Positions 3,711 through 63,509 of a stretch of 64,000 nucleotides of DNA are shown one piece after another. Position numbers and translations under genes: made by a program. Below the pieces are notes generated by a model. The model had not been told where the DNA came from. It worked only from the letters and a program-made list of their open reading frames with translations, and made no database searches. The stretch's first letter is position 1. The number at the start of each line of letters is the position of its first letter. Source of the stretch: Escherichia phage DT571/2; sequence record NC_047749.1; one strand, 5' to 3'.

Positions 3711-3801
3711 TTTTTATTAGCTGAACTCTGATTACCGAGTCATTTTGGCTCGGTTTTCTCTATGCTCAAAGACACTGGTAGCAGCCCCTGGAAAAATTTA
3801 C

Positions 3802-3830
3802 TTGCTTGATGCTCAAAATCTTGATATAAT
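3802..3830 (+). promoter_or_regulatory. T5-type sigma70 promoter firing into a ~0.6-kb non-coding stretch
   Basis: ttgctt 3802-3807, 17-bp spacer, tataat 3825-3830, leader atttatattgaattgagagac; no ORF of 60 aa or more on + until 4425. Confidence 0.55.
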
Positions 3831-4424
3831 ATTTATATTGAATTGAGAGACATTAGTAAAAATTGATTTTGCTAATTTTTCTTAGTGAAGCTGACAAGGG
3901 ATTTACGGCGAGAGGAATCGATGACCCGTAAATAGCTGCATAAGGTACGTTGCTAGAGCTTTACGAAAAAGTTTTTTCTTGTTTACAATCCGCGATACGG
4001 AACAGTTAGGCTGCCCCATTAAGGGTTGTTTTAACTATTACTAGTGTTTATATTGCATTAGTTAACCTTCAATTAAGTGATCTGTGTACCCTGAATTCGG
4101 AAAGGTAAATCCAAACCGTGCATATTTAGCTCGTTATATAGGCAGAGCTTTATATGGGGGTGCGAACGAAAAGAGCAGCGAATGGCGGCACGTACAGTAG
4201 TCACCTACCAATAGGATAGTGAGGACAAGTAGAATCGGCTTAGCGGCCAATGACCTAGGTTCTATTCTGTATAAGAGCGAAGAGAGCACAGCACTGAGAT
4301 ATGATAACTTATTCATATTGTTTGATGATAATTGATGTTTACGTAAATAGTAGTAATAGTTGTTCTATTCTTTCTGAATAGTCCTAAAGAAAAGATTTCG
4401 ATTAACCAACACAGGAGTATTATT

Positions 4425-7214
4425 GTGTTTTCTATCCTCCAAGGTCACGCCGGGTTTTCTCGTGATTTAGCAACAGGTATTTGGCGAGAAATCAAAGCGG
4501 GAGATTATACCTTTGCCAAGCGATTCTCGAAAGAGCATCCAGAAGGTAAACCAGCTTCTATGCCCTTCAAATTTGATGTAATAGAAGAGCACGACCCACA
4601 AAGCCTTGCAGAAATGTTACCACTTATGAGACGTTTAACGTCTGACCCTCATATCGTTGCGGTACGAGGTCGATGTCTTGCACCTAAAAATAATGTGCGA
4701 CGTAAGAAAGATAACTTTAATGTATCTAATCCTAGTAATATTATTGCTATGGACGTGGATGGTATCCTAGATACCGGTGGGTACGACAAATTTAATCTTG
4801 TTGGTATGGCCCGCCACATTATTAAGATGTTGAATAGTATTAGTGAGGATATGTTTCCTCTTGATGCAGGCTTTATAGCTCATGCATCATCTTCGGCTGG
4901 GCTAAAACCAGGTATCCGAATGCACTTAATACTAGAATCTAACGTCAAGGTAACTCAGGGTCAGCTAAAGTTCTTATTTACATCTATCAATGATAGTAGT
5001 AAGCAAAAATTTGGTTTTGATATTGCCGACCTAGCTTATTACTCATCTGTCCAGCTCCACTATTTTGCCGACCCCTTATTTAGCGATGGTATTGTTGATC
5101 CGTTTAAAGCGGAGAGTAAGCCACGTCTGGTGTATGTTAAAGGCTCAAAAGTAAACTTACCTAATAATCTAGTTGACTATGAAACAACTAGAGGAGAGTT
5201 TAAAGAGGAATTCTACTCTTTACTCGATCAAATTAAAGGCAAAAAGATTGCTTCTGATAAAGTAGAAGAAACCATCAGCGAGTTAGAAGAGGCTGATGAT
5301 GGAGTGTACTTGCGTATTATCCCCAAACTATACCATAGAGCATTAGAGGATGGTGTTGATTTTGAATGGCTAGAACGTGAGATTAAACCAGCTTTATCTG
5401 AATATATTGCAACTAAAGATAACAGTCGTAATATTCAAGATTACTTTAATAACGGTCGCAAGCAGGCTCTCAAAGCGTTTGTTAATAATTCTAAACGTGA
5501 GATTCCACCAAATCTGAAAGGTGTTCCACTTAAGAAATTAGAAGTGGATTCTCCACCAGAAGTTCCGTACCTGAAGATTAACATTGTGCCCCCAAAAGGT
5601 CATATAACATTTGTTAAGGCAAGTCTTGGTACGGGTAAAACTACGGCAGTAACTAAATGGCTGGACGCAGGTGTTCTTCCGGGCAACTTTTTAGCAGTTA
5701 CAAATACTAGAGCACTGGTATCTTCAAATGCCAAGAAATTTAGTGCAGGACAATACGATAAGTCTGTAGATATGCTCAACTTTAAACGTGGGGCTATTGA
5801 TCGTATGTCCACAACTATTCACTCTTTGCATAAGTTCAAAAGTTTTATTGGGCAAATAGACACCATTTTTATTGATGAATGTGACGCTGTAATGAATGAC
5901 CTATTATTCGCCCCTGTTGTTAAACAACGTCGCGAGTGTATTCAAGTTCTACGTGACATCCTCATGACAGCTAAGACTGTAATCTTATCCGATGGTGATA
6001 TTAGTGCGGAAACAATTGAAGCATATGGTTCTTTGATTGAGTTCGATAAACCAGTTGCATTTTACAATCACCACCGTAAAATGTTATCAAAGGCTCATGC
6101 TTATGAATTCCCTGATGAATCCAGTATTTGGGTTGCACTTCAGACTTCTCTAGAGATGGGTGAGAAATCTATTCTAGTATCTGATTGTGGTCCTGATGAG
6201 CTGAATGAGAAGGGTATGGCACTACGTCGTAATACTGGTGCATTAGTTAAAGAAATCCATTCAAACTCCACTTCAGATGTGGATATTCGACGTATTCTGG
6301 ATTATACAACTAATGAGCTAATTGATCAACAAATTGATTGCTTATTATGTAGTCCATCCGTAACGAGTGGAGTTGACTTTAACTATTTTGATAACGTATT
6401 TGTTATTACTAGAACCAGTAATCAGGCGCCAAACATGCGTTTTCAAGCAATCAGGCGCGACCGTGGTGCTCAGAATATCTATTATTTTATTGATAAATCC
6501 ACTAGTGGATTCTCTGCGGGTTCTGAACAATATAATATCGATGAAGGTTGGCTGGAGTTAGCACAGCAATTATATGCACGTCGCAGGGAGCTGGAGTCTA
6601 GGAACTATACTAGTACTTTACGTTATTACTTGCTTGATCAGGGTGCAACTATTGATATTTTCAGTGAAAGCTGGGGAACTATTGAAGGTGCTGGTAAAGA
6701 ATACACAGAAGAGCGAATCAAAGCTATTCTACATTCAACTCCTGATTATTGTGCTCCACGTCATGCGGATGCGTATGAGGCTAAACTACTTATTGTTCGC
6801 TATTATCATCTTGAGTCTATTAAAGATGTAACAGTTGAGCATGTTGAACAATATATCAAAGATAAGCCGAATGATCGAGCTGCATTCTTCCATAAGATGC
6901 ACGAGATGTTCTGGGAAGATATTAAGAAGTGTTCAAATGTGACCATTAAACCATTCATAGAAGCTCTGAAAGGTAAGAAGAAAGATTTCTTCCTTAAAAC
7001 AGGTCAGAGTGCTAACCCAAAATATGCTAGAATGTATCTTGGTATGATGGGTATTGGTAAAGATATGAACACGGAGAATATCGTAGACTGGTATAGAACC
7101 TACTGCAAAATCGAATGTATGCCAATCCCTCTCAAATTCATGACTGAAGAAGAGAAGGCTATGGCAGAAGAAGCAATGTCAGAACTAGGTGCTAGAAATG
7201 ACAGTGAAGAATAA
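4425..7214 (+). CDS. 929-aa Walker A/B ATPase-helicase, putative replication initiator/origin-binding-type protein
   Basis: GTG start with SD acaggag 7 nt upstream; Walker A SLGTGKTT and Walker B FIDECD in the C-terminal half; N-terminal half has DVDG (DxD) and GIRMH motifs compatible with a primase-polymerase-like domain. Confidence 0.6.
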   Translation: MFSILQGHAGFSRDLATGIWREIKAGDYTFAKRFSKEHPEGKPASMPFKFDVIEEHDPQSLAEMLPLMRRLTSDPHIVAVRGRCLAPKNNVRRKKDNFNVSNPSNIIAMDVDGILDTGGYDKFNLVGMARHIIKMLNSISEDMFPLDAGFIAHASSSAGLKPGIRMHLILESNVKVTQGQLKFLFTSINDSSKQKFGFDIADLAYYSSVQLHYFADPLFSDGIVDPFKAESKPRLVYVKGSKVNLPNNLVDYETTRGEFKEEFYSLLDQIKGKKIASDKVEETISELEEADDGVYLRIIPKLYHRALEDGVDFEWLEREIKPALSEYIATKDNSRNIQDYFNNGRKQALKAFVNNSKREIPPNLKGVPLKKLEVDSPPEVPYLKINIVPPKGHITFVKASLGTGKTTAVTKWLDAGVLPGNFLAVTNTRALVSSNAKKFSAGQYDKSVDMLNFKRGAIDRMSTTIHSLHKFKSFIGQIDTIFIDECDAVMNDLLFAPVVKQRRECIQVLRDILMTAKTVILSDGDISAETIEAYGSLIEFDKPVAFYNHHRKMLSKAHAYEFPDESSIWVALQTSLEMGEKSILVSDCGPDELNEKGMALRRNTGALVKEIHSNSTSDVDIRRILDYTTNELIDQQIDCLLCSPSVTSGVDFNYFDNVFVITRTSNQAPNMRFQAIRRDRGAQNIYYFIDKSTSGFSAGSEQYNIDEGWLELAQQLYARRRELESRNYTSTLRYYLLDQGATIDIFSESWGTIEGAGKEYTEERIKAILHSTPDYCAPRHADAYEAKLLIVRYYHLESIKDVTVEHVEQYIKDKPNDRAAFFHKMHEMFWEDIKKCSNVTIKPFIEALKGKKKDFFLKTGQSANPKYARMYLGMMGIGKDMNTENIVDWYRTYCKIECMPIPLKFMTEEEKAMAEEAMSELGARNDSEE

Positions 7215-7431
7215 AAAATGGGAAACAAGGAAGTTTCCAGTAAAAGAACGTAAAGTTCCTGTTTATGATACTTCGGAGAAGCTATGTAGGGTGGTTCCTG
7301 CTAGACTAGCAGGTATCCCTAACATATCCGAGTGGTTACTTAAACAACGGAGGACTAGCGTATCCCTTCGCATAGGGTTTGAGTTGGATAAAGTATATGC
7401 TGAACTTTCTTCTTTGCTCAAGGAATCATAA
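7189..7431 (+). CDS. Hypothetical protein (80 aa)
   Basis: ORF overlaps the end of the 929-aa gene; basic; weak support. Confidence 0.3.
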   Translation: MLEMTVKNKKWETRKFPVKERKVPVYDTSEKLCRVVPARLAGIPNISEWLLKQRRTSVSLRIGFELDKVYAELSSLLKES

Positions 7432-7440
7432 AAAATTTAC

Positions 7441-7469
7441 TTGCATAGTTCAAAAAATTTCTGTATAAT
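7441..7469 (+). promoter_or_regulatory. T5-type strong early promoter (PN25-like)
   Basis: A-rich upstream tcataaaaaatttac, -35 ttgcat 7441-7446, 17-bp spacer, -10 tataat 7464-7469, leader agattcataaatttgagagaggag; near-identical to the T5 PN25 promoter as I recall it. Confidence 0.8.
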
Positions 7470-7500
7470 AGATTCATAAATTTGAGAGAGGAGTTTAAAT

Positions 7501-8205
7501 ATGGCTGGTTCTCGCAGAAAGAAACATATCCATGAAATCCCGGATGAAGTCTTTAAAAAAGTTATAGAGCATCTGGAGAACGGTGGTACTAAGAAAGCAG
7601 CATGTGAGATGCTCGGCGTATCATCCAATCCGACTATGGAAAGGATGATAGAAGAGTGGCAAGATCGCCAAATTCAAGTTGCCGAGATGAAGAAAAAGAA
7701 ACGTGGTACACTCATTGAAGGCATCGAGTTAGCTAACGTTATTGAACAGTATTTATCCGGTGATTCTTTTGAAGAGATTGCCGATCGTAATTATCGCTCT
7801 GTAGCAATGGTTAAATCTGTTCTGGAACGATATGGTGCTCTACTTCGTTTGAACGATATTGTAGACCCGTTGAATCCACCAATTATTCCTGATGATGCTG
7901 TAGCAGAAGAATTTGAAGTAGGTGAGCTAGTTTGGGTTCCTGGATACCAGTGTATCGGTGAAATCAAAAAAGCAATGGATAACCCTGTTGGTTGTTACCG
8001 TGTATGGCTTCTATCAGAAGGCAAACAACAGAATGTTCATTATATGAATTATGAATTAGCTTCTGTAAAGCATTTAGAAAAGCTAGGGGTTGACGTAAAA
8101 TCTCTGGGGTATAAATGGTCCCGGGAAGAAGTTATCACACTGATTAACGAAGCTGTTAAGGCTGCCTTGAAACTTGATAAAGAAAAAGGAAAACGCCGTG
8201 AGTAA
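7501..8205 (+). CDS. Putative DNA-binding transcription regulator with two HTH motifs
   Basis: HTH-like GTKKAACEMLGVS, and SFEEIADRNYRSVAMVKSVLERYG resembling sigma70 region-4 helices; immediately downstream of a strong promoter. Confidence 0.5.
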   Translation: MAGSRRKKHIHEIPDEVFKKVIEHLENGGTKKAACEMLGVSSNPTMERMIEEWQDRQIQVAEMKKKKRGTLIEGIELANVIEQYLSGDSFEEIADRNYRSVAMVKSVLERYGALLRLNDIVDPLNPPIIPDDAVAEEFEVGELVWVPGYQCIGEIKKAMDNPVGCYRVWLLSEGKQQNVHYMNYELASVKHLEKLGVDVKSLGYKWSREEVITLINEAVKAALKLDKEKGKRRE

Positions 8206-8449
8206 ACTAACTGATTTGCTTAAAGATGGGGAAGTAAAAACACTATATCGTAGAAGCTGGGATAACGATAATAACGGCTTAGTGTTACTAACTTTAGATG
8301 CTGACTCGGATGTAGCTACTCAACATACCTGGGTAGCGGGCAACTATCCATATAGCGAAGTTGTTTCATTAACAGTATGCGAAGCTGTTGCAGACGATTG
8401 GGAGATTGCCAGCATTGATGATATGCTCGCTGTTGGCCTGGTGGAGTAA
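8198..8449 (+). CDS. Hypothetical protein (~84 aa)
   Basis: GTG 8198 with SD aagga 7 nt upstream, in the same frame as track ORF 8174-8449. Confidence 0.4.
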   Translation: MSKLTDLLKDGEVKTLYRRSWDNDNNGLVLLTLDADSDVATQHTWVAGNYPYSEVVSLTVCEAVADDWEIASIDDMLAVGLVE

Positions 8450-8466
8450 CTACTTAAAAATTTCAG

Positions 8467-8495
8467 TTGCTTAATCCTACAATTCTTGATATAAT
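8467..8495 (+). promoter_or_regulatory. T5-type sigma70 promoter
   Basis: ttgctt 8467-8472, 17-bp spacer, tataat 8490-8495. Confidence 0.6.
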
Positions 8496-8552
8496 ATTCT
8501 CATAGTTTGAAAGAACTATTCTGTTTAATTCTTAATTAAGGAAATATAAAAT

Positions 8553-8963
8553 ATGACTACTCCAACTCAGTGGACTGATGAACTGTTCGAAAAAATGTCT
8601 TCCGAATACGTTGCTCGTATGGAGCAATTCCCAGAGGATGAACGTCCGAGTGTTAGCATGGAAATTGTTAGTGAAATTGCCCAGGAAAATGGTGTAACTC
8701 CGAACGGTTTTCGTATGAAGCTGACTAAAGCAGGTTTGTATATTAAGAAAGCTGCTGGCTCTGCTTCTAAATCTAGTGCATCTACTGGAGAAAAAGCTTC
8801 CGGTGGTTCTCGTACCTCCAAAGCCCAGGCTCATGCCGACCTTCGTTCAGCGTTCTCTGATGCTGGCTTAGCACCAGATTTTCTGGATGATGCAATTATC
8901 GACAAACTGACCGGTAAAGCGGCTGCTCATCTGGCAGAAGCAATCCGAGCTATCACTAAGTAA
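8553..8963 (+). CDS. Hypothetical protein (136 aa), Ala/Ser-rich C-terminal half
   Basis: RBS taaggaaatataaaat-ATG; no catalytic motifs. Confidence 0.5.
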   Translation: MTTPTQWTDELFEKMSSEYVARMEQFPEDERPSVSMEIVSEIAQENGVTPNGFRMKLTKAGLYIKKAAGSASKSSASTGEKASGGSRTSKAQAHADLRSAFSDAGLAPDFLDDAIIDKLTGKAAAHLAEAIRAITK

Positions 8964-8977
8964 TAGGGAGATTATAC

Positions 8978-9265
8978 ATGAATAAACAAGAAATTATCTC
9001 CGCATGTGAAGCCCATAATGAGTTCTACCTTCATTATGAGAAACTACGCCAAAAGGGTACTACATACCTTCAGGGTACTATGGATTTTTCTGATAAGTAC
9101 CTAAGTAAACGTTTTGCTCAGGAGCGTATCCGTCAACCAAAAGATGACGAAATTCTAGTGTTTAGTCGCACTAATGACAGCTTCCGATTTATTCCTGTTG
9201 CGAAAGTTCGTCGCATTACGAGCCTTCAGTCAGAGTTAGATCGTGCTTCTCCAGTAGGCCGATAA
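8978..9265 (+). CDS. Hypothetical protein (95 aa)
   Basis: RBS gggagattatac-ATG; followed by terminator. Confidence 0.45.
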   Translation: MNKQEIISACEAHNEFYLHYEKLRQKGTTYLQGTMDFSDKYLSKRFAQERIRQPKDDEILVFSRTNDSFRFIPVAKVRRITSLQSELDRASPVGR

Positions 9266-9275
9266 GAAACCAATT

Positions 9276-9300
9276 AGCCCCTATATGGGGCTTTTTGTGT
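9276..9300 (+). terminator. Rho-independent terminator
   Basis: Stem agcccc/ggggct, loop tatat, followed by ttttt. Confidence 0.6.
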
Positions 9301-9315
9301 ATTTGAGAAACGTAA

Positions 9316-9624
9316 ATGAGCGATCAGGTAAACCAAAACTATGAAGGACACGTTGATGATCAGTCAATCCTTCTATGGGAAAGAGAAGGGGAACAAATAA
9401 GATTGACAGTATCTGAATTTCGTGGGAATCTATACATGGGAATTAGGTATTGGCTCCAGGATATTACTGGAGAATGGTTTCCAACGAAATCCGGCTTCTC
9501 TTTTCCGTACACTCTAGAAACTACTTCACAGCTATTCTATGCTTTTACGCAAATCCTTAGTGAATCTGAGGTTTTACATGAAGTACAGAAACGAGCTGAA
9601 GAACTCAAAGCCAAGAATGCCTAG
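9316..9624 (+). CDS. Hypothetical protein (102 aa)
   Basis: ORF with downstream terminator; no motifs. Confidence 0.45.
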   Translation: MSDQVNQNYEGHVDDQSILLWEREGEQIRLTVSEFRGNLYMGIRYWLQDITGEWFPTKSGFSFPYTLETTSQLFYAFTQILSESEVLHEVQKRAEELKAKNA

Positions 9625-9640
9625 TTCTTGGCTTTTTCTT
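9611..9640 (+). terminator. Rho-independent terminator
   Basis: Stem gccaagaa/ttcttggc followed by tttttcttt. Confidence 0.6.
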
Positions 9641-9651
9641 TATAAATGTAT

Positions 9652-9680
9652 TTGCTTTCAACTCAGTTTTGTTATATAAT
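9652..9680 (+). promoter_or_regulatory. T5-type sigma70 promoter
   Basis: ttgctt 9652-9657, 17-bp spacer, tataat 9675-9680, leader atttatataaattaatgagagg. Confidence 0.65.
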
Positions 9681-9694
9681 ATTTATATAAATTA

Positions 9695-9910
9695 ATGAGA
9701 GGATCAATCATGGCAATGACAATAACACTTCCCAAGATTCAAGCAAAACTTAATCTACTTTCCACAGCACGCATTAATTATCAAGATAACATAGGCACAG
9801 TAAATCAAAAGGCGTACAAAGATGCGTTTCTGAAAGAATCTGCTGATTTGATGGATATGGTTACACAATATAATAAAGAACTCAAGATGGAAATCGCCGA
9901 TGATGACTAA
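9695..9910 (+). CDS. Hypothetical protein (71 aa)
   Basis: RBS gagagga; ATGA overlap with ligase subunit A start. Confidence 0.45.
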   Translation: MRGSIMAMTITLPKIQAKLNLLSTARINYQDNIGTVNQKAYKDAFLKESADLMDMVTQYNKELKMEIADDD

Positions 9911-10874
9911 TGTAAAAGAATTTATTAAACGCTGTCAAGAAGCATATTATCAAGGCATGTCTTTAATCTCTGATGAAGAATATGATCGCCTGGTAAAACG
10001 CTTCCCGTTAGAGGAAGAGATCGGGCCTAAGGGTGATATTCCACATCTATACCGTATGTATTCTTTACAGAAAGTTTATTATAATCGTGGAGATAAACCC
10101 CCATTTAACCCGTTAGGTCAAGTAGAAACTGATAAGTTAGATGGTTGTGCAATTTCCCTGCTATATATTAATGGCGAATTTGTTCAAGCACTAACTCGTG
10201 GTAATGGTATTCTGGGAAATGATGTCACAAGCAACGTAAGATTGCTGAACATCCCTAAAAAGATTTCTCAAAAAGTACCTACTCAAATCACTGGTGAAGT
10301 TCTAATTACAAAAGAAGTAGAAAATAAACGTAACTTTGCCTCTGGTGCTATTAACCTCAAAGATAGTGATGATTTCGTACAGCGTATCGGGGAAGGTGGT
10401 TTAATCTTCGTTGCATACGGTATCCAGTGTTCTGCTGAATCTGTAGGTATTACAGAAGCGTATTTAAAAGATATGCTTTGGCTAGAGAATGAGAACTTCT
10501 TAACAGTTGTTAATGTACGTTCCTTCTTTAAATGGATTCCAACGGACGGTAAAGTTGTTCGTATTAATGATAACAACAAATTCTTCCGTGAAGGCTGGAC
10601 TAATAAATTTCCTCGCGGTGCATTTGCTATTAAAGAGGATGAAGAAGGTGAGACTACAACTCTTACTAAAGTTGAATGGAATGTAGGGGCTTCTGGTAAA
10701 GTAACTCCAGTCGGTTATTTTGAACCAGTAATTATTGATGATGCTACAATTGTTAAAGCGACTCTTAATAACGTTGATTATATTAACTCTCTCGATCTAG
10801 AGATCGGTTGCCAGATTCGAGTGATTCGTGCTGGTGGTGTAATCCCGTGCATAGTAGAACGAGTATACGATTAA
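9900..10874 (+). CDS. NAD-dependent DNA ligase, N-terminal subunit (adenylation + OB domains)
   Basis: LigA-like N-terminus (ISDEEYDRL), adenylation lysine motif KLDGCA, OB-fold-like C-terminus; no Zn-finger, HhH or BRCT. Confidence 0.75.
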   Translation: MMTNVKEFIKRCQEAYYQGMSLISDEEYDRLVKRFPLEEEIGPKGDIPHLYRMYSLQKVYYNRGDKPPFNPLGQVETDKLDGCAISLLYINGEFVQALTRGNGILGNDVTSNVRLLNIPKKISQKVPTQITGEVLITKEVENKRNFASGAINLKDSDDFVQRIGEGGLIFVAYGIQCSAESVGITEAYLKDMLWLENENFLTVVNVRSFFKWIPTDGKVVRINDNNKFFREGWTNKFPRGAFAIKEDEEGETTTLTKVEWNVGASGKVTPVGYFEPVIIDDATIVKATLNNVDYINSLDLEIGCQIRVIRAGGVIPCIVERVYD

Positions 10875-11073: not shown

Positions 11074-11856
11074 TTGATGAAAATCGAAATTCCAACACAA
11101 TGTCCCTCTTGTGGTTCTAAGCTAGATCTTGTCAACGGACAATTATTCTGTCGTAATAAGTCCAACTGTCCAGCGCAATCAAGTAAGTTAATTGAGAACT
11201 TCTGTACAAAAATGAAGTTAAAGGGCTTTGGCCCGAAAACTATTGAGAAGCTGGAGCTGACGAAGATTTCAGAACTATTTTACCTAACCGAAGAAGATTT
11301 GGTTAGAGCCGTGGGTAGCAAGGTTGCCGCTAAGTTAATTAGCGAATTAAATACTAAAGTTCGCGGAGACATTGACTTTGGTTCAGTTCTCGGTTCTTTA
11401 GGAATCCCTCTAATTGGAGAGGTTGCAGCAAAGAAATTATCCCAAAATTGCACTAGCTTCCACGATGTGAAGGCTGACGGCAAGGCTGGAGAAAACTATA
11501 AAGCCTGGCTAAATTCCCCACAAGGCAAGGATGTTATCGAATTACCGTGGAAATTCTCAAATGGTATTAAAGGTGCTAAAGCTGACATCATCATTACAGA
11601 TGAATTAGTTGCCCCGCCAAATGGAATCACGGTGTGTATTACCGGATCTTTGCAAGATTTTGCAAATCGAACGGATGCAACAAACTATCTAGAAGGTCTA
11701 GGGTATACTGTTAAAAAATCAGTTACCAAAGACGTTAAATACCTCATCTGTGAGGATGAATCTAAGCGTTCTTCCTCATCTTATAAGAAAGCCGAAACGA
11801 ATGGGATAGAAATCCTGTCGATTAAAGAACTATTGGAGAAAAATAATAATGTCTAA
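11074..11856 (+). CDS. NAD-dependent DNA ligase, C-terminal subunit (Zn-finger, HhH, BRCT-like)
   Basis: Begins with Cys4 zinc finger CPSCGSKLD...CRNKSNC typical of LigA; Gly-rich helix-hairpin-helix-like segments; BRCT-like C-terminus (ITGSL...). Confidence 0.7.
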   Translation: MMKIEIPTQCPSCGSKLDLVNGQLFCRNKSNCPAQSSKLIENFCTKMKLKGFGPKTIEKLELTKISELFYLTEEDLVRAVGSKVAAKLISELNTKVRGDIDFGSVLGSLGIPLIGEVAAKKLSQNCTSFHDVKADGKAGENYKAWLNSPQGKDVIELPWKFSNGIKGAKADIIITDELVAPPNGITVCITGSLQDFANRTDATNYLEGLGYTVKKSVTKDVKYLICEDESKRSSSSYKKAETNGIEILSIKELLEKNNNV

Positions 11857-12616
11857 ACTGAACTGGAACGTAGAAGGTGTAACCGAGTCTCTGAAAGCAA
11901 AAGCCACTGCTCTGGGTGTTGCTGTAATCTCTCAAGAACAAGTAGCTGCTATCGCTGCTGAACTGGCTGCTGAAACTGGCAAAGACGTTACCGCTCGCTC
12001 TGTTGGCTCTAAGCTGCGTAAAGAAGGTTTCGAAGTACAGAAAGCTAACGAAGTACAGAAATCCCCGTGGACTCCTGAGCAGGAAGCTGAACTGGTTGAT
12101 TTCCTGAACTCTCATGCTGGTCAGTATACTTATGCTGAAATCGCTGCTGCTGTAGCTGGTGGTCAGTTCGGTGCTAAACAGGTACAGGGTAAGATCCTGA
12201 GTCTGGAAATGACCGCTTCTGTTAAACCAACTGAAAAAGCTGCTGCTGTTCGTTCCTTCACTCCGGATGAAGAAACTGATTTTGTTAATCAGGTTGTTGC
12301 TGGTGCTACTATTGAAGCTATCGCTGCCCACTTCGGTCGCAATATTAAGCAGATCCGTGGTAAAGCTCTGAGTCTGCTTCGTGAAGGTCGTATCGCTGCT
12401 ATGCCGGTACAGGAAACTTCAAGTGCTAAAACTCGTGAAGATCTGCTAGAAGGTCTGGATCTGGCTAACATGACTGTTGCTGAGATCGCTGAGAAAACTG
12501 GTAAGTCTGAGCGCGGTGTTAAATCTATGCTGTCTCGTCGTGGTCTGGTTGCTAAGGACTATGATGGTGCCGCTAAGCGTGCTAAACTGGATGCAAAAGC
12601 TGCGGCTGCTGAATAA
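11849..12616 (+). CDS. Abundant early DNA-binding-type protein built from ~4 tandem HTH-like repeats (possibly the T5 D5 equivalent)
   Basis: Four ~30-aa repeats of the form hxxIAxxxGxxxxxVxxKxL (e.g. VAEIAEKTGKSERGVKSMLSRRG); strongly biased GCT/GTT/CGT/CTG codon use typical of highly expressed genes; terminator directly downstream. Confidence 0.55.
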   Translation: MSKLNWNVEGVTESLKAKATALGVAVISQEQVAAIAAELAAETGKDVTARSVGSKLRKEGFEVQKANEVQKSPWTPEQEAELVDFLNSHAGQYTYAEIAAAVAGGQFGAKQVQGKILSLEMTASVKPTEKAAAVRSFTPDEETDFVNQVVAGATIEAIAAHFGRNIKQIRGKALSLLREGRIAAMPVQETSSAKTREDLLEGLDLANMTVAEIAEKTGKSERGVKSMLSRRGLVAKDYDGAAKRAKLDAKAAAAE

Positions 12617-51110: not shown

Positions 51111-52427
51111 TTATTTACCACGGGAAATAGAGTAAATTCCATAGCGGAGCGCATCACAAAGGTGAGAGTTAGCATCATGACGTGGTCTTTCACGTGATAA
51201 TTTCTCTTCGCCTTCTTGGAAATCCCACTTATAGTTCTGCAATGCATGAATTAAGGAGGAACATGAGGCATCCACAATAATTTTCCCTTGCTGGAATAAC
51301 GCTTGCAAACATGCTAGACCATCTAGGACAGATTTTTTAGCCGGAGCCGACGCGATTTCATGCTCATACGCTAAGTCCTGGCGGAACTGAGCTGCTGCAG
51401 AGTCAACAAAAATACGATCAACTTTATAACGATCTATACAGTGCTGAATATAAGCAGCATGCTGAGCTGTAGTTTTCTCCGCCTGCTGGTACTCTTCTAA
51501 CACATAGTAAGTATCCGTATCGTAATGATATTTAATAGTAAGAACTGCTGTAGGATCACGATAACCAACGTCAATACCAAGCAACGTTTCGAATGCTTCA
51601 TCATCTTTAAAGAAGTGGCGCATACCTTTGAGGTCTTTAACATGATCGATAGCATTGAAAGTATCAAATATCTGGCCTTCGAATACAGAGAAGTCAGCCT
51701 CGTATTCCTGACGGAAGTAGTTTTTACTAACTGTACGACGTGCTTCCTCAATGTCATGCAAGTCAGCACGTGGGTTATCACGATATGTACCATGAATGGA
51801 TACCCAGTTAGGCAACGTATCATCAAATCCGTAGGCGTAAAACTCTTTAAACCAGTTACCTCCACGAGGGGTGGAAATAAATAGAGCCTTAGAATTAGGT
51901 TTATCTAGAGTAGGACGCAGCTGAACCCTGAAGGCATCACCACCCACGTCGGAAATTGCCGCCTCGTCAAAGATGATAAAATCGTATGAACGTCCAACTG
52001 CGGAGTCAGCCTGAGCCGCGGAAGCTAGTTTAAATAGAGAACCATTAGCTAACTCAATCTCTTTATCTTTAGCGTTTTCACGTTCGGTTTGTAGGCCGTA
52101 CTTCTTAATAAGACCACGAATCTGAGACCATCCGATATTAGCCAGTGAATAGTTAGGGGCAACTACTAGCACCTTCACATTAGGTTCCAGCAACTTTAGG
52201 AACCCAAGTGTATATGCTATAAAGGACTTACCTACACGGCGTGATACACACGCCGTTACAAAACGATGTCTAGGGTCTTCTAGCGCATTGATAATAGCTA
52301 TTTGAGGGCCATTAGGTGTAATACCCTCTTGTGCTAGTATTCCGGAAACAGGTAGACGAAAGAAACGTTTATCTACCCCGAAATCAATAACATCTACTGT
52401 ATTAACATAGGGTCTTGATACTTCCAT
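51111..52427 (-). CDS. Terminase large subunit (438 aa)
   Basis: Walker A-like VSRRVGKS; 438 aa; start overlaps stop of the small-subunit gene. Confidence 0.8.
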   Translation of the reverse strand: MEVSRPYVNTVDVIDFGVDKRFFRLPVSGILAQEGITPNGPQIAIINALEDPRHRFVTACVSRRVGKSFIAYTLGFLKLLEPNVKVLVVAPNYSLANIGWSQIRGLIKKYGLQTERENAKDKEIELANGSLFKLASAAQADSAVGRSYDFIIFDEAAISDVGGDAFRVQLRPTLDKPNSKALFISTPRGGNWFKEFYAYGFDDTLPNWVSIHGTYRDNPRADLHDIEEARRTVSKNYFRQEYEADFSVFEGQIFDTFNAIDHVKDLKGMRHFFKDDEAFETLLGIDVGYRDPTAVLTIKYHYDTDTYYVLEEYQQAEKTTAQHAAYIQHCIDRYKVDRIFVDSAAAQFRQDLAYEHEIASAPAKKSVLDGLACLQALFQQGKIIVDASCSSLIHALQNYKWDFQEGEEKLSRERPRHDANSHLCDALRYGIYSISRGK

Positions 52428-52909
52428 TACTTCTTACCTCCAGTAGCTAGGGAAGTAATTAAGTCCATGTAGTTTTGGTCCCCAGCTCCAGCAATAATGT
52501 TATTCTGGATATTGGTCTGGTTAGCAGGAGCACGGACAGCAGCTTTAGCTTTTTCTAACTCTACCATCATCTTCATTTCTTCCATCTTCATCTTGTGTGC
52601 CTTCCAGAGAATATCCATAATATCCTGGTCAGAACCCATGCCAGTTTCTTCTAGCTCCTCTAGTTTACGTTTAATAACTTCGTCTAGAACACCAAACAAA
52701 CGATCCCTATTACGGAATCCACTCTCCATAAAAATATCGTTTAAGTAGTTCTTAACTTCACTACGATTCATAATATCTCGAAAAGCAATTTCAGACATTC
52801 CAAGACTACGTGCGGCAGAAGGCACATCGCTGCCGCACTGTAAATAAGCTTCAATCACATCCATCCCTTCAGGGGACATAAGATCTGGTACTAATACATC
52901 ATTTGCCAT
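52427..52909 (-). CDS. Terminase small subunit
   Basis: HTH-like [17 protein letters not shown]; immediately upstream of and overlapping the large subunit. Confidence 0.55.
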
Positions 52910-52919
52910 ATTTCCTCCT

Positions 52920-54680
52920 TTAGGTAAGGCGTTGAACTGTTACTCGTAGTCTCGGTAAGAAAACTGCTGAACCTAAACTAACGTGTAGTATAACACCTAA
53001 TTCTGCATTACCATTACCAAGATTTTTTATTGTATATATAAAACTATTTCTACTAAAAGCTCCGCTGTCTGGAGTATATTTATAAGCAGAGGTAGTATGG
53101 AAAGGTACTAACTTTCCAGGAGGAAGAACTAAAATTTGGTGAAATATAGCATCTCCTCCTGTATAACTTTGTGATTTTCTTCCTTGCACCTGAAAAACAC
53201 TACCATTCCACGTATTTACTGGTAACCCAGCAACATTAAGGTTACCAGATAGTATTTCACTAGTTAATATAACAGTAGAGTTATTATTTGGCAGACCTAA
53301 TCCAACTGTTGCTAGGGATTTATAAACATTACCAGTGCCTGGGTATGTCGGAGTAATATCGTTACCAATATAGGCGCTAGCCACGTTACCAGATAATAGG
53401 CGTAAAGGTACTGATGAAGGCCCCCAGACAACACCATTCTCATTACCAATAGTATTATTATTAGAGTTTACGTACCAAGTCTTACCAGCAGAGAACTTAT
53501 AAATACTAAGTTGTGCTCTTGTACCACTATAGTTGACTGGTGCCCATATAGATCCTTTATTGGAACATACAAATTCACATCTTCCAGTAGTATCCCCAAA
53601 CACTCCATCATGAGCAGCGTTTACTCCAATATACTCCATATCAGCACGAGAAGTTAGGTTTCCTAAAGCATTCTGATTAATAAACTTCCAACTAGTAGTA
53701 GATAACTTAACTCCCTTAATAGTAAAGTTGGACGGAGAAATTATTATGTCAGAACCCGTGAAAGGGTTACTAGAAACAGACATACCACCGTTAGAATACC
53801 TTAGGTTCAGTACATACCATATAACTTTTGTAGGAGTTACTCCGTAGCCATCTTGAACTATTTTTGTATTAGCTGATTGACTTGCTAACTTAGTAGCAGA
53901 ACCTCTACAAACATACCTATTTCCACCATCACTAAAGTGCTGTACTATATTGCTAGGAATTGTTTGTTTGTACCCAACATACCCCCTAATGTTAGAATTA
54001 CATACATAAAACCATTCATGGCCACGTTTACCAGCCCCCATTGGAGCCATCCAGTTAGGATTCCAATAGTACGTATCACCTGAAGATATAGGAACGGAAG
54101 AACTTCCTATAGGATACCCTAGTTGTTTGAAGGTTTCAGCTACAGTAGCACCCACAGGTGCACCACCCCCCGGTCTTACAACACCATGGTAAGTACTATG
54201 TAGTACAGTACCACCTGTACCACTTCTAGCTATAGATTCTTCATGCCCCAGAGAACTATTATAAGAATAAGTACCTGAAGCTAGACTATTCCCAAAAGCA
54301 AATCCAGCAGTTTGACTTAAACTAGCAAACGATCTATAGGGGTCAGCCTGAGTAGAAGAAAGAAATTGTCCAACTTGGGATTGAGTACCATTCAAGAAAC
54401 CACGATGAGTACCATTAACTTCTATAGCTGTTAGTATAACCCTACCAGGATCATTGCTCTTTAGGTTAACTATATCAGAAGGCATTTGGCATACATAGAA
54501 ACCATTCCCAGCACTACTTAATGCACTCTCATAAGTGCTTTCTACTAATACGAAGGGCATATCAGAATGAAAAATAGTATTAGTACTAGGGTTTTTATGA
54601 GCATTAATATCTCCACCACTAGCAGTATTTAGTGACAATACAGTTTTACCATCACTATATTTTCCAGCGAAAAAACCCAT
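52920..54680 (-). CDS. Receptor-binding tail protein (pb5-like, 586 aa)
   Basis: Last late gene, divergent from the lipoprotein gene as for oad/llp in T5; Gly/Ser/Asn-rich. Receptor cannot be told from sequence. Confidence 0.6.
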
Positions 54681-54705
54681 ATAATCTCCTATTATAAAAA
54701 TGTAT

Positions 54706-54734
54706 TTGCTTTTATCTCTCTATTTTGCTATAAT
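54706..54734 (+). promoter_or_regulatory. T5-type sigma70 promoter for the lipoprotein gene
   Basis: ttgctt 54706-54711, 17-bp spacer, TGc-tataat 54726-54734, leader agattcataaattagaaatggagag. Confidence 0.7.
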
Positions 54735-54765
54735 AGATTCATAAATTAGAAATGGAGAGATAAAT

Positions 54766-55032
54766 ATGAAAAAGTTTGTAATTGCACTAGTTGCCACAGT
54801 TATGTTATCTGGTTGTGCACCTGCTCCCAAACCATTTTGTACGGGATTTGTAAAATCTTTTGGTGGTGCGGGAGAGGAACATTACGGTCTCAAGGTTCAA
54901 AAAGTTCGTATTAAGGGAGATCGCTTTCCAGTAGTACAGCTCCGTACTAAGTTTGGGTGGTGGGATCTCAGTCAGTTTGACCTTAAATATGGTGATTGTA
55001 AATTTAAACTAGAGCAATCTAATTACCTGTAA
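54766..55032 (+). CDS. llp: Lipoprotein, receptor-blocking superinfection-exclusion type (Llp-like)
   Basis: Signal peptide plus lipobox MKKFVIALVATVMLSGC; small; divergent from the receptor-binding gene; early-type promoter. Confidence 0.7.
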   Translation: MKKFVIALVATVMLSGCAPAPKPFCTGFVKSFGGAGEEHYGLKVQKVRIKGDRFPVVQLRTKFGWWDLSQFDLKYGDCKFKLEQSNYL

Positions 55033-57318: not shown

Positions 57319-58983
57319 TTACGCGAAAAATTTGCCGTTTTTAAAGTCGATTAACGTGCGCTGCCCGTTTGCATATGTAATTACATGCGTTTGCGTCCAG
57401 CTTGATGCGCCGACGTTGTAGCCCATATCGAGGCTGCCCGATACGCCAGCAGTATATACGCCGCCGTAAATGCTGGCGGTATGGGTGTGCCCCGTGTTTA
57501 ATTTGCCCAACTTTTTAAATTGCTTCGGATTGCCGCGGCTCCCGTTGATGCCGTTGTGACCGTGTACGCCGCACTCAATGCCTGCAATCTTGAATGATTG
57601 ATCAGTCGTTAGGAATATGGCGTTAAACTCACAGCCTGCAACCTTGCGCAGCGCATAATCCAGCACGTTGAAAGTATCGTCATTTTCTGCAATAGCTCCA
57701 TAGATCGCGGCGTTGAGGCGGTGATATAGCTCTGCGTTTGCTGGATCGTCTTTAATGTTAGCGTTGCGATCATCCAGCCAACGGGATAACGCCAGATCGT
57801 GGTTTGACTCAACAATGATTGTTTGCGAGAAATCGCGCTCCATTGATTCCAATACACGCCCCGTGTCGATAAGATCATCTAAAACCTTATCACGTCCGGC
57901 GGCGTACTGTTTTGCTAGGAATACGCCAGATGCGCGATTGTGGTGGTTGCGTGATGTAAAGTCATGCACATCATGCACGAACTGATATTTAGGTTTAAGA
58001 ATATCAAGCAAACTATTTTCGCCCGCCCATGACGCTTCAGCACACGCCTTATCTAATTTTTCAGCGTGCACGTCGCCATACTGTAAACCTAAAACATGCC
58101 CCGATGTTTCATAACATCCGGCGGGAGTGGCGCAAATATTCAAATCATAAAAAACGCCGGTTTCATCCATCGTCTCAAGCTGGCGAACAAAAAATGCCCC
58201 GTCCTCGTCAAACTCGACAATCAGCGCGCCAAAGTTATGTAACGCTTCGGCCTTTTGCCCTGCTTTCTGCTGAATGTAGTTTTTTAGCGTTGCCGCTCCC
58301 GTTGAGTACATACGGCGCACTACTTCACCTTTGAGCGCTGGAACGCTTTCTGCGGTGATTTTAGCTGCTCCAATTGCCAAACCTTCAAGATCAAGCGCTG
58401 TTGCAGTCTCAGCGAATCCAGAAAGCGGGTAGTCTGCCGTTGGCAAAACATTAATCTCAGCCATGAAAGCAAAGCGGCGACTATTTAAAAACACGTTTTT
58501 ATTACAGATATATTTATCAAAAGCGGAATCATATTTGATCCCGTCCGCACCTTCTCCATTCTGGAATCCTTTTTTGTTATAAATGAACTTGCTAACCAGC
58601 AAATCAGCGCCGATAAATTGGGCGTAATGTTCAAGTGAGGCTAAAAAGTTTTTATGCGGGAACGTGTTGTTCTGGATTGATGTTATAATGAAGCGTTTGC
58701 CCTGCTTTACTTCCCACTGTTCAACCGTGCTAGAAATAATTCCCGCCGCCTCTGGGCGCTCGTCGTTTTTAACGGCTTTTGATGCTTTCGCCTCTTTTGG
58801 TTTCGCTGGTTTGTTTGCTTCCAGCCAATCACAAATTGCGGTCGAATGTTTTGCCGTATCGTACACCGCTTTTGATATATCGTCGCAGACTTCCAATCTA
58901 GTAGCGCGCAGACGTTTACCGTAAAAATTAAAATCAGCGGCCAGCTTCAGGATAACGGTTTGTTTTTCTGCGGAAATAACCAT
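57319..58983 (-). CDS. A1: Pre-early protein A1-like, metallophosphoesterase fold (554 aa)
   Basis: Calcineurin-like motifs in order: GDVH, ESNHD, HGHNG, GHTH; size close to T5 A1 (556 aa as I recall). Confidence 0.6.
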   Translation of the reverse strand: MVISAEKQTVILKLAADFNFYGKRLRATRLEVCDDISKAVYDTAKHSTAICDWLEANKPAKPKEAKASKAVKNDERPEAAGIISSTVEQWEVKQGKRFIITSIQNNTFPHKNFLASLEHYAQFIGADLLVSKFIYNKKGFQNGEGADGIKYDSAFDKYICNKNVFLNSRRFAFMAEINVLPTADYPLSGFAETATALDLEGLAIGAAKITAESVPALKGEVVRRMYSTGAATLKNYIQQKAGQKAEALHNFGALIVEFDEDGAFFVRQLETMDETGVFYDLNICATPAGCYETSGHVLGLQYGDVHAEKLDKACAEASWAGENSLLDILKPKYQFVHDVHDFTSRNHHNRASGVFLAKQYAAGRDKVLDDLIDTGRVLESMERDFSQTIIVESNHDLALSRWLDDRNANIKDDPANAELYHRLNAAIYGAIAENDDTFNVLDYALRKVAGCEFNAIFLTTDQSFKIAGIECGVHGHNGINGSRGNPKQFKKLGKLNTGHTHTASIYGGVYTAGVSGSLDMGYNVGASSWTQTHVITYANGQRTLIDFKNGKFFA

Positions 58984-61185: not shown

Positions 61186-61365
61186 ATAATAACTATAAAA
61201 ATAATCACCGTTAAAATAATCACTATAAAAATAATCACCATTAAAATAATAACTATAGAAATAATCACCATTATAATAATCACCATTAAAATAATCACTA
61301 TAAAAATAATCACCATTAAAATAATCACTATAAAAATAATCACCATTATTATAATCACTATAAGA
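61186..61365. repeat. Tandem array, ~12 copies of a 15-bp AT-rich unit (ATAATCAC[C/T][A/G]TTAAA / ATAATCACTATAAAA)
   Basis: Contiguous 15-bp periodicity read directly from the sequence. Confidence 0.9.
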
Positions 61366-61401
61366 AACTATCGGCTTAAGTGAGAACCACTATCATTTAA
61401 G

Positions 61402-61510
61402 TTATCCACAACGTTATCCACAGCACAAAATGATTTGACACGATAGGCGGCGATATAAAGATTTATCCACAGACTTATCCACAGGTTATCCTACTGTATA
61501 TTTATCCAGG
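61402..61510. promoter_or_regulatory. DnaA-box cluster (4 perfect TTATCCACA plus 2 variants)
   Basis: TTATCCACA at 61402, 61414, 61463, 61475; variants ttatcctac 61486 and ttatccagg 61502. Confidence 0.8.
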
Positions 61511-61880
61511 GTAAAAAGATAGTGTTTACAACTGCAATCAATTTTGAGCGGCCTAAAACGCTTTCTAACGAGCTGATCGCTGTAGGGTAATATTAAAGTA
61601 AAGCCTTTACCCGTCGGCCTAGAGGCTTCGCCGTGTTTTGCTCTTTACTGCACCGCTGCGCGGTTAGCATAAAACTAGGTGTTAGGCAAGAAAAATAAAA
61701 AGTAAAGTAAACGTTGCCCCTAGAAAGAAAATAATTTTACCGGTAACATCGAAAGCGGGTAATAATTAACCTAATGTAAAGTTTTGTAAGGCCCGCCATA
61801 ATCAGCGGCCTTTTTTGTTATACTGCCCTTACACCGTTTAAGGACGGTTAAAAATTTCCCGAAAAATTTGGAGGCTTAAA

Positions 61881-62060
61881 ATGGTTATTTTTCGATCTAT
61901 TCTGGCGGGTATCTTGGGCGCTATTTTAACTCTATTTGCTACCGCTTACGGTATTCAAGATTCTTATTGCGGTTTAGTAAATACTAAACCTATGGTTATT
62001 ATTGGCGCGGGTATCGCTGTTTTTTCTTATTTGCTGGGCTGCATGAATAAAGGAGAATAA
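61881..62060 (+). CDS. Small membrane protein (59 aa)
   Basis: SD ggagg 6 nt upstream of ATG; two hydrophobic helices. Confidence 0.45.
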   Translation: MVIFRSILAGILGAILTLFATAYGIQDSYCGLVNTKPMVIIGAGIAVFSYLLGCMNKGE

Positions 62061-62062
62061 AA

Positions 62063-62275
62063 ATGATCCGCAACGTTTCTCTTGCTCGTTCCAAAGGTTT
62101 TAAGCTGGTGGATGTAAACACGTTCGAGCGTCCTGGTTGTAAAATCGAATATATAGCGCGGAATAAAAACGCTTTCCGCGTTACAGAAAAGAGATTCGAT
62201 AAACGCGGCAACGTGATAGCTGAAACGGTTAAATATTTTGCCACCTTTTACGCGGCCTTTCGTGGGGTATTATGA
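62063..62275 (+). CDS. Hypothetical protein (70 aa)
   Basis: SD aaggaga; part of a tightly packed small-gene operon. Confidence 0.45.
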   Translation: MIRNVSLARSKGFKLVDVNTFERPGCKIEYIARNKNAFRVTEKRFDKRGNVIAETVKYFATFYAAFRGVL

Positions 62276-62397
62276 AGAGCGTTGTTATTGTTATCCTTGC
62301 AATGGTTGGCGGTTTTACCACCACCTTGTTTAGAAATGATCCTCTTTTGCTAGGGATCTTTATGCTTTTATCTGGTTATCTGATCGGGAGGTTATAA
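62272..62397 (+). CDS. Small membrane protein (41 aa)
   Basis: ATGA overlap with the previous ORF; hydrophobic. Confidence 0.35.
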   Translation: MKSVVIVILAMVGGFTTTLFRNDPLLLGIFMLLSGYLIGRL

Positions 62398-62398
62398 A

Positions 62399-62743
62399 AT
62401 GGTGATTTATGAAGGTGATCGCCTTGTTGCTGATTGCCGTCCGGCATTGTTAGCAAACTACTTAAACCAGCTTTCGCCAGTATATAAAGGCGTTATAAAT
62501 ATTTATGAAGGCGGGGCGCATTATAAGATTAATGCGGTCGTTGCCCGTGAACTAGCGTTTCAATTTTTAACCTTTTCATCTTGCAATATTCAGGTCATGG
62601 GTGAGGCGTTAATTGCAGAAAATGAAGATGATTTTATTAATATCTTTCGCAAGATATGCACCGAGCGCCTGATAATGAAAGGGGCATATATTCAATCCAC
62701 TGCGGATAGTATTGAAACGGCTTTTCGAAAGGTGGCACAATGA
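62399..62743 (+). CDS. Hypothetical protein (114 aa)
   Basis: SD gggagg 7 nt upstream. Confidence 0.45.
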   Translation: MVIYEGDRLVADCRPALLANYLNQLSPVYKGVINIYEGGAHYKINAVVARELAFQFLTFSSCNIQVMGEALIAENEDDFINIFRKICTERLIMKGAYIQSTADSIETAFRKVAQ

Positions 62744-62848
62744 AGCTATATATTTTCGCGGGTAATGTTGAGGCTGCAAATGATTCCGCTGGTGGCGATA
62801 GCGTTCGCCATTATTGGCAAAATTATATTTACTAGGCGTAATGATCAC

Positions 62849-62903
62849 GGGGCACAACTATCAGGGAGTGCCCCTGATTCTCAAATGAGAATCATTCTCA
62901 TTT
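62849..62903. repeat. Hairpin (ggggcac/gtgcccc) followed by a perfect 21-bp palindrome aaatgagaatcattctcattt
   Basis: Palindrome at 62883-62903 is related to the 23-bp array units downstream. Confidence 0.8.
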
Positions 62904-63136
62904 GACCGCGCCCGCGATGGTTAGCACACTAATGATTAGGGTGTTACGTGTCGCCTTGTGTGATCGTTAGCGGGCTAACTAATTTTCAAGCCTCCTCCAG
63001 ATTTGCCCTTGTTTTAGTATCCCCATCAAAATAAAACGCGTTAGAAAGCGATTCAGGGCGTTTTAGGCCTATATTAGAATTATTCACTGCGTAGGAATAC
63101 TGTATATTTATACAGTAGAATAACCTGGGGATAAGT

Positions 63137-63208
63137 CGGTGGATAACGCTTCAAAATGGCTAGAATTTTGTCAAGGCAAATCGTGCTGTTGATAAGTCTG
63201 TGGATAAC
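63137..63208. promoter_or_regulatory. Second DnaA-box group, opposite orientation (tgtggataa)
   Basis: gtggataac 63139-63147 (8/9) and perfect tgtggataa 63200-63208. Confidence 0.65.
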
Positions 63209-63240
63209 TTAAATAACAGTGTTTCTCACTTCCGTTTTTA

Positions 63241-63505: not shown

Positions 63506-63509
63506 GCGA

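Follow-up and report, generated by a model that had tools for sequence, protein, structure and literature searches.

The window analysed here is the whole stretch of 64,000 nucleotides of Escherichia phage DT571/2 (NC_047749.1), laid out as an early replication region on the + strand (to about 25.4 kb), followed by late structural genes on the - strand and then by a pre-early, terminal-repeat-like end. At the DNA level, the 1.3 kb around the locus of interest share 96.9% identity with Escherichia phage DT57C and 94.4% with T5, and this region has matches in 481 Demerecviridae records. The phage is T5-like, a Tequintavirus whose closest relative is DT57C. At the locus, all on the + strand, lie an early promoter (7422..7496), a gene encoding a protein of 234 aa (7501..8205), an overlapping gene encoding 83 aa (8198..8449), and the next early promoter (8447..8521). 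On the same strand, the gene of a UL9-like origin-binding helicase lies upstream (4425..7214) and that of the multi-HTH protein D5 lies downstream (11849..12616). A structured RNA search found no Rfam family anywhere in the window.

Alignment to the annotated T5 feature identifies the first promoter as the orthologue of P-N25: 65 of the 75 bases at 7422-7496 are those of the 'promoter P-N 25' of T5 (AY543070, 63043-63117), and the match is complete (30/30) over the part that extends from the -10 hexamer through the Shine-Dalgarno sequence. Read from the sequence, the promoter comprises an A/T-rich upstream tract (7427-7439), a -35 hexamer TTGCAT (7441-7446), a -10 hexamer TATAAT (7464-7469) after a 17-nt spacer, and a conserved transcribed leader that contains an AGGAG Shine-Dalgarno (7489-7493) ahead of the ATG at 7501. 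The -10, the 17-nt spacing, the A/T-rich tract, the leader, and the genomic position are common to both phages. The mismatches are confined to the -35 hexamer (TTGCAT in the window versus TTGCTT in T5), the adjacent spacer (its first ~10 bases are AGTTCAAAAAA in the window versus TCAGGAAAATT in T5 P-N25), and the far upstream edge. A preliminary description of this DNA had called the promoter almost base-for-base the T5 PN25 core, which is in essence accurate, save at the -35 hexamer and the early spacer. The window contains a single copy of the 30-mer that runs from TATAAT to the Shine-Dalgarno, with 0.00 occurrences expected by chance. At the equivalent position 5' of the T5.111 gene, two T5 records carry the annotation 'promoter P-N 25', and a third (AY587007) has 'putative early promoter T5P33'.

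The T5 version of P-N25 is nearly unchanged in five other Tequintavirus and Epseptimavirus genomes among those aligned, and the distant Hongcheonvirus DU_PP_V retains the hexamers and the spacing (TTGCAA-17-TATAAT). Six other Demerecviridae genomes keep the layout as such, with TATAAT, a 17-nt spacer, a TTGC-type -35 and an A/T-rich tract. Farther out among the relatives, the gene directly adjoins its upstream neighbour, so the pairing of promoter and gene is specific to the subfamily. By orthology, we expect strong sigma70-dependent initiation at the window promoter, with the proviso that its -35 and spacer differ from those of T5; transcription would presumably start near A7476. A generic sigma70 consensus scan of the window flagged neither PN25 nor PN26, the former because TTGCAT matches TTGACA at only 3/6 positions. 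Such a scan under-calls promoters of the T5 type, whose -35 is TTGCWW. P-N25 is the source of the 'T5 promoter' in pQE-type expression vectors. The promoter itself is already textbook material, and the only addition made here is a natural variant of its -35 and spacer.

The 83-aa gene (8198..8449) is the orthologue of T5.112 according to its sequence, the T5 annotation and phrog_643. It starts with a GTG at 8198, so that its first 8 nt are shared with the end of the 234-aa gene, and PN25 probably drives both genes as one transcript with coupled translation. The scan detected nothing resembling a terminator between 8205 and the promoter that follows. The latter (8447..8521), aligned to the T5 annotation as the orthologue of P-N26, drives the T5.113 orthologue (8553-8963) and closes the two-gene unit of PN25. 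The T5.112 orthologue gives a weak Pfam match to Tad2-like proteins (E 0.012) that lies below threshold. We considered and rejected its assignment as a Tad2 protein, given that this sub-threshold match is the only one and that a sequence search of the PDB returned none.

The 234-aa protein (26.7 kDa, pI 6.1) is, from its open reading frame and comparison with T5, the orthologue of T5.111: 233 of its 234 residues equal those of the T5 protein (AAS77157), the gene neighbours are the same as in T5, and the phrog_3611 profile matches over residues 3-231 (E 9e-129). On this point the preliminary description is borne out: in this T5-like phage, PN25 drives the early gene of an HTH protein. A literature search for 'T5.111' returned no relevant paper. 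The gene goes by several names in the T5 records, 'D2 protein' in AY543070 (AAS77157), 'D3 protein' in AY692264 (AAU05248) and ORF102 in AY587007; in AY692264, the Sheffield T5 record, 'D2' denotes instead the upstream helicase of ~928 aa. The records thus disagree on the classical name of the 234-aa gene.

A helicase is what many GenBank and RefSeq entries call this protein. The 234-aa gene bears this label in RefSeq NC_005859, PHROG 3611 and many genomes of T5-like phages, and a published genome-wide screen of T5 (CRISPRi-ART) repeats it in its annotation table. Such labels are all that speaks for a helicase. The protein lacks a Walker A or DEAD-type motif, it gives no helicase or P-loop match in Pfam or NCBIfam (for Pfam, neither do 28 homologues), and its predicted fold of two HTH units and a small barrel is unlike that of a helicase. 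The T5 'D2' characterised as a bipolar helicase by Wong, Sayers and Sanders (2013) is AAU05245, a protein of ~928 aa with Walker motifs at 396-489 (PMC3632103). It is encoded at 51489-54275 of AY692264, which corresponds to the window ORF 4425-7214 (929 aa, the T5.108 orthologue according to the T5 records and PMC3632103) and not to the 234-aa ORF. This UL9-like ATPase is encoded 290 nt upstream of the 234-aa protein and has no sequence or fold kinship with it; the two have in common only a gene name in some records and a genomic neighbourhood. Since the characterised D2 helicase is another ORF and the 234-aa protein lacks helicase features, the label arose from a collision of gene names. It is an error, and that T5.111 should be a helicase after all is hardly credible.

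What is the protein, then? AlphaFold2 models the full length with a mean pLDDT of 86 (with 28 homologues) and the N-terminal 118 residues alone with 88, and the values reach about 90 over residues 15-110. The latter are predicted to form two tri-helical HTH units in tandem, with helices at 15-26, 31-38 and 43-67 in unit 1 and at 74-85, 90-96 and 101-110 in unit 2. Unit 1 (7543..7701; AlphaFold2, alignments and Pfam) consists of residues 15-42 and of a long connecting helix, 43-67, which terminates in the basic run KKKKR. In the family alignments of this unit, T30, K31 and K32 are invariant, A34, C35, E36, L38 and N43 are near-invariant, and residues 21-42 give sub-threshold Pfam matches to HTH_23 and HTH_8. 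Unit 2 (residues 74-110; 7720..7830) is delimited by AlphaFold2, a profile match to Cbp2 and sub-threshold matches to HTH_28 and HTH_58. Its Y84 and R99 are invariant, as is S100 in a subset of 20 sequences, and R99 and S100 open the third, presumed recognition, helix. Across the two units, the conserved residues T30, K31, K32, N43, R99 and S100 fall at the turns and at the starts of third helices. The two HTH motifs of the preliminary description therefore hold at the structural level, with a pLDDT of 86-88 and a family profile that matches a two-HTH protein.

After the two units, an acidic Pro-rich linker (residues 111-140; 7831..7920) with a net charge of about -6 and invariant P126 and P130 leads into a predicted small beta-barrel of the KOW/Tudor/SH3-like kind (7921..8055), with AlphaFold2 strands at 143-146, 151-158, 165-171 and 178-182 and near-invariant G141, V144, W145 and Y149. 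Searched with Foldseek against the PDB, the barrel finds NusG KOW, Tudor, PWWP and HspQ as its best matches, with E-values of only 0.03-0.3; the target-normalised TM is 0.6-0.7 for these small domains, and four strands are clear versus the five of KOW/Tudor. The C-terminal helical region (8056..8202; helices 190-194, 199-202 and 208-233) ends in a basic tail and is absent or shorter in the relatives that are most distant. The fold search with the whole protein revealed no PDB homologue, and its matches in BFVD were to other 'D2 proteins' only, among them that of Vibrio phage VspSw_1 (TM 0.90 to the T5.111 model). Judging from these models, T5.111 is most likely an HTH protein of DNA-binding type with an unusual combination of domains.

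The closest analogues of its N-terminal module are bipartite tandem-HTH proteins. The family profile matches, in the PDB, the two-HTH protein Cbp2 (E 6e-7), an archaeal CRISPR-repeat-binding protein (PDB 2LVS), with HTH unit 2 aligned to residues 56-104 of 2LVS. The fold search with the module ranks Cbp2 at the top, followed by Pax6, the DNA-binding domains of Mos1/SETMAR, and Pax5; none of these is significant (Foldseek E >= 0.1 for the bipartite HTH neighbours), which is explained by a different relative orientation of the two HTH units. Pfam searches of the 28 homologues gave HTH_23, HTH_58 and HTH_28 in 10-15 members, all below curated thresholds, and NCBIfam gave weak matches to Cbp1 and IS630 transposases only. 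T5.111 resembles Cbp1/Cbp2, the Pax paired domain and Tc1/mariner/IS630 transposases in having two three-helix HTH units and a linker, and it gives weak matches to Cbp1, IS630 and Tc3. It departs from the group in its connector, which is a single long continuous helix, and from the transposases in the absence of a catalytic domain. To the bipartite plan it adds the KOW/Tudor-like barrel and the C-terminal helix.

The preliminary description had seen in one of the HTH motifs a resemblance to sigma70 region 4, and had taken the protein for a candidate factor in the reprogramming of host RNA polymerase (RNAP). Under this reading, a sigma-region-4-like or anti-sigma-like T5.111 would bind host RNAP and redirect it to late promoters. 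The HTHs are indeed present, sigma region 4 and LuxR-type HTHs appear at ranks 10-50 of the N-terminal fold search (E 0.8-2.6), and one of the 28 homologues matches Sigma70_r4/Sigma70_r4_2 in Pfam (E 0.08-0.11, with Sigma70_r4 at 0.11). Yet comparison with the sigma and anti-sigma families by hhalign, Pfam and NCBIfam revealed no specific kinship. When the profile of the N-terminal module was aligned by hhalign to region 4 of E. coli RpoD (residues 528-613, MG1655), the probability was 0.4%, and it was 0.1% for full-length RpoD. The window protein has no Sigma70_r4 or Sigma70_r4_2 match at E<=1, NCBIfam finds no sigma family, above or near threshold, and the first sigma-4 domain of the fold search (3hug) comes at rank 46 with an E-value of 2.6. 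Nothing in T5.111 is like sigma region 2, the other sigma regions are missing too, and the only feature it has in common with sigma70 region 4 is the helix-turn-helix. Furthermore, it is not among the RNAP-associated proteins of T5-infected cells (PMC7472727). The resemblance to region 4 is thus not upheld, and we regard a sigma-like T5.111 as very unlikely.

The Sigma70_r4_2 match that does pass the threshold sits in D5 and not in T5.111. The D5 orthologue (11849..12616) reaches an E-value of 5e-7 and 29.7 bits against a cut-off of 25.7, and gives Myb-like and HTH_23 signals as well. In the T5 record, D5 (T5.118) is annotated as a DNA-binding protein needed for replication and late transcription. 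Like T5.111, it is a multi-HTH protein encoded by an early gene of the replication block. HTH unit 2 of T5.111 aligns weakly with the HTH at 206-236 of D5 (hhalign E 6e-4, probability 29%), and this match may be the source of the impression of a sigma factor, which does not make T5.111 sigma-like. The likeness is limited to about 31 residues, and D5 lacks the beta-barrel. No paralogy of T5.111 with A2 was found. C2 and D15 are also tied to T5 late transcription.

Homologues of T5.111 are numerous and their genes are arranged in a constant manner. A word-indexed search gave 48 clusters, down to 31% identity, and an exhaustive profile search gave 743 representatives at E<1e-3; at E<1e-30 there are 136 clusters (50% identity), with members nearly all 200-240 aa long. 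In five independent distant loci, with homologues at 27-52% identity or recognised by profile only, the T5.111 homologue comes first, then one to three small genes, and then ligA, ligB, a D5-like gene, DnaB and primase; PolA is also visible in one of the five. The small genes are often PC4-like, DUF7022 or A2-like. A UL9-like helicase gene lies upstream in two of these loci (L003 and L010) and is absent within 7-8 kb in the other three (L004, L017 and L018). Given this constant order in distant loci, the gene counts as a fixed part of the replication block.

Published experiments on T5 bear on the function of the protein in several ways. Phages with an amber mutation in the classical D2 gene fail to make net DNA (Hendrickson and McCorquodale 1972, as cited in PMC3632103), and D2 is assigned to the 234-aa ORF in one T5 record and to the 929-aa helicase in another. 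In the CRISPRi-ART knock-down of T5, T5.111 was classed as 'Semi-Fit', with a mean of -2.60 (p 0.083), the background lying near -3.5 to -4 (PMC11879866, supplementary file 16). In the same screen T5.113, T5.114 and D5 were clearly 'Fit', and T5.108 and the DnaB-like D6 were 'Not Fit' (PMC11879866). Since the two latter genes are important, the sensitivity of the screen is limited. The HIDEN-SEQ and transposon-essentiality preprints included no T5-like phage, and 'ORF55', the DRT4 trigger, was rejected as a candidate for T5.111 because it is another T5 gene. In RNAP preparations from T5-infected cells sampled at 3, 15 and 25 min, the only phage proteins accompanying the enzyme were gpA1, a fragment of pb8, and gpT5.026, with no species of ~27 kDa; it is chiefly in the discriminator that early T5 promoters differ from late ones, and no upstream activator site is reported (PMC7472727). 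According to the same study, the mechanism of the early-to-late switch is still open and gpT5.026 merely modulates it. Our own search for a DNA target was negative: a k-mer count over the window revealed only the terminal repeat arrays (61-64 kb) and no repeated candidate operator, no iterons turned up in a repeat search of the 715-nt gap that precedes the helicase gene, and no enriched motifs were found near the T5.111 gene or in the early region.

Our favoured, if tentative, reading is that T5.111 binds phage DNA early in infection and helps to start or organise its replication. The proposal follows from its position at the head of a block of ligase A/B, D5, DnaB-like helicase, primase and polymerase genes across distant relatives, and its grounds are this synteny, the early expression, and the DNA-negative phenotype of the map interval. 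Host sigma70 RNAP would fire from PN25 soon after the second DNA-transfer step, and the short mRNA would be translated into the 234-aa T5.111 and the overlapping 83-aa T5.112. The N-terminal tandem HTH may contact double-stranded DNA over roughly 15-20 bp, and the barrel and the C-terminal helix might act as a protein-protein or oligomerisation module. T5.111 could then mark an origin or recruit replisome components, and would not be a sigma-like subunit that reprograms RNAP. Against this role stand the mildly acidic nature of the protein (pI 6.1), the lack of a candidate target, the ambiguous assignment of D2, and a knock-down effect that is not significant (p 0.083). Synteny with replication genes would fit a regulator of the module equally well, and D5, in the same block, is annotated for both roles.

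The main rival is that T5.111 is a DNA-bound regulator of transcription, which would bind near promoters, as a repressor of early or an activator of late ones, and contact RNAP through the barrel and the C-terminal module; it would be a classical factor and not a sigma-like subunit. We find this possible, if less probable than a role in replication. The tandem HTH and the early expression from one of the strongest promoters are consistent with it, as are the early-to-late switch still in need of an explanation, gpT5.026 being only a modulator (PMC7472727), and the weak likeness between HTH unit 2 and the HTH of D5. The barrel resembles KOW and Tudor folds; certain of these make contact with RNAP elsewhere, and the barrel might likewise provide the link to the polymerase, but these fold matches are weak (E >= 0.03). 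The RNAP preparations at 3, 15 and 25 min contained no phage protein of ~27 kDa, and the differences between promoter classes concentrate in the discriminator, with no upstream activator site reported (PMC7472727). Moreover, late transcription is credited to D5 in the T5 record, and the k-mer and repeat searches gave no repeated candidate operator. A third and unlikely account makes T5.111 a DNA-binding protein of host takeover or counter-defence, which would coat or mark the DNA of phage or host or act with T5.112, and would be dispensable for replication and transcription as such. It agrees with a strongly expressed early gene, with a weak and variable knock-down phenotype, and with a coupled small gene showing a weak match to Tad2-like, anti-Thoeris, proteins (E 0.012 in Pfam). 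This match, however, is below threshold and without support from PDB sequences, and the conservation of T5.111 and its fixed position in the replication block of divergent phages argue for a core rather than an accessory function.

Our analysis has a practical outcome, which is a correction: the wrong 'helicase' label hides the fact that T5.111 has no assigned function. The protein is more interesting than its promoter. It is a strongly expressed early protein that all T5-like phages conserve, its family numbers at least 136 clusters at E<1e-30, and its gene heads the replication block, near D5. For the study of how T5 replication starts and of how RNAP is switched from early to late genes, a defined and testable DNA-binding candidate such as T5.111 is useful. 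A bolder idea, which we deem improbable, is that T5.111 is the missing DNA-bound factor of the early-to-late switch, with its HTH units on DNA and its barrel on RNAP or D5. If this were true, late transcription would be coupled to replication in Demerecviridae.

Within the early replication gene block headed by the 234-aa two-HTH gene (ligase, D5, DnaB, primase), the Pfam family Sigma70_r4_2 is found above its cut-off in the 255-aa D5 orthologue (11849-12616, + strand; residues 204-230, E 5e-7, 29.7 bits vs 25.7). Since it passes this threshold, the D5 orthologue is the sigma-4-like protein of the module. It has further signals for Sigma70_r3, Myb-like and HTH_23 domains, and faint Sigma70_r4_2 matches also occur in the D5-like genes of distant loci. 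The annotation of the T5 record describes D5 as needed for late transcription.

The 234-aa gene itself (7501-8205), the T5.111 orthologue, is labelled "helicase", "putative helicase" or "T5 D2 Helicase-like" across many records (NC_005859.1, NC_048627.1, NC_048865.1, NC_048006.1, NC_047887.1, PP724615.1 and MZ501072.1), and the same mislabelling is found in PHROG 3611 and in the CRISPRi-ART annotation table. We reject this label as an error that arose from a gene-name collision: the name "D2" also stands for the ~928-aa helicase (Wong et al. 2013), whose counterpart in the window lies at 4425-7214.

The 83-aa T5.112 orthologue (8198-8449, +) has a GTG start with an 8-nt overlap onto the stop of the preceding 234-aa gene, a near-full-length but sub-threshold match to the Tad2-like (anti-Thoeris) Pfam family (E 0.012) and the PHROG label "transcriptional regulator"; no PDB sequence match was found for it. 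In distant relatives, a gene encoding the Pfam Phage_T5_A2 domain adjoins the D2-like gene (L004, 6593-6958; L008, 350-703; L010, 7132-7527). T5 itself requires its pre-early A2 protein for the second step of DNA transfer. The A2-sized ORF of the window showed no similarity to the N-terminal module of T5.111. On the upstream side, T5 encodes the HNH homing endonuclease hegI (T5.109) between the helicase gene and T5.110, whereas DT571/2 lacks it (window 7189-7431 vs T5 62318-62836), and there the helicase gene and the T5.110 orthologue overlap directly, at the end of the former. Elsewhere among the relatives (Lindwurm, MSP1 and RN29), an HNH gene is inserted immediately beside the promoter.

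Upstream of the helicase gene (3792-4424, +), an early promoter of the T5 type (TTGCTT-17-TATAAT, 3802-3830) precedes an ORF-free stretch of ~590 nt. As RNA, this stretch folds somewhat more stably than shuffled sequence (z -2.4), and neither Rfam matches nor iterons were found in it; it may represent a structured leader, a small RNA or a region resembling an origin. Near the window's end, 61190-63750 holds non-coding short-repeat arrays: one of ~15-bp period (61192-61350), one of ~23-bp units (CATTCCACTTCTTAAATGAGAATCATT, 63262-63470) and four copies of GTGCAAATCCGAC (63534-63710), of which an extra copy lies within a gene at 22976. Because these arrays lie beyond the A1-sized ORF (57319-58983, - strand), the region is probably the injection-stop/terminal-repeat region.

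A generic sigma70 consensus scan of window 5500-10500 gave fewer matches than shuffled sequence (11 vs 15.5), did not detect the early promoter PN25 and matched PN26 only weakly and off-register (9/12, on TACAAT, not TATAAT at 8490-8495). Promoters of the T5 type, with a TTGCWW -35 and an A/T-rich tract upstream of it, call for a dedicated pattern, a simple version of which gives seven sites in the window. The leader transcribed from a further T5-type promoter (54696-54769, +) opens with a AGATTCATAAATT box identical in PN25, and its presence in both leaders suggests a downstream promoter element common to distant transcription units.
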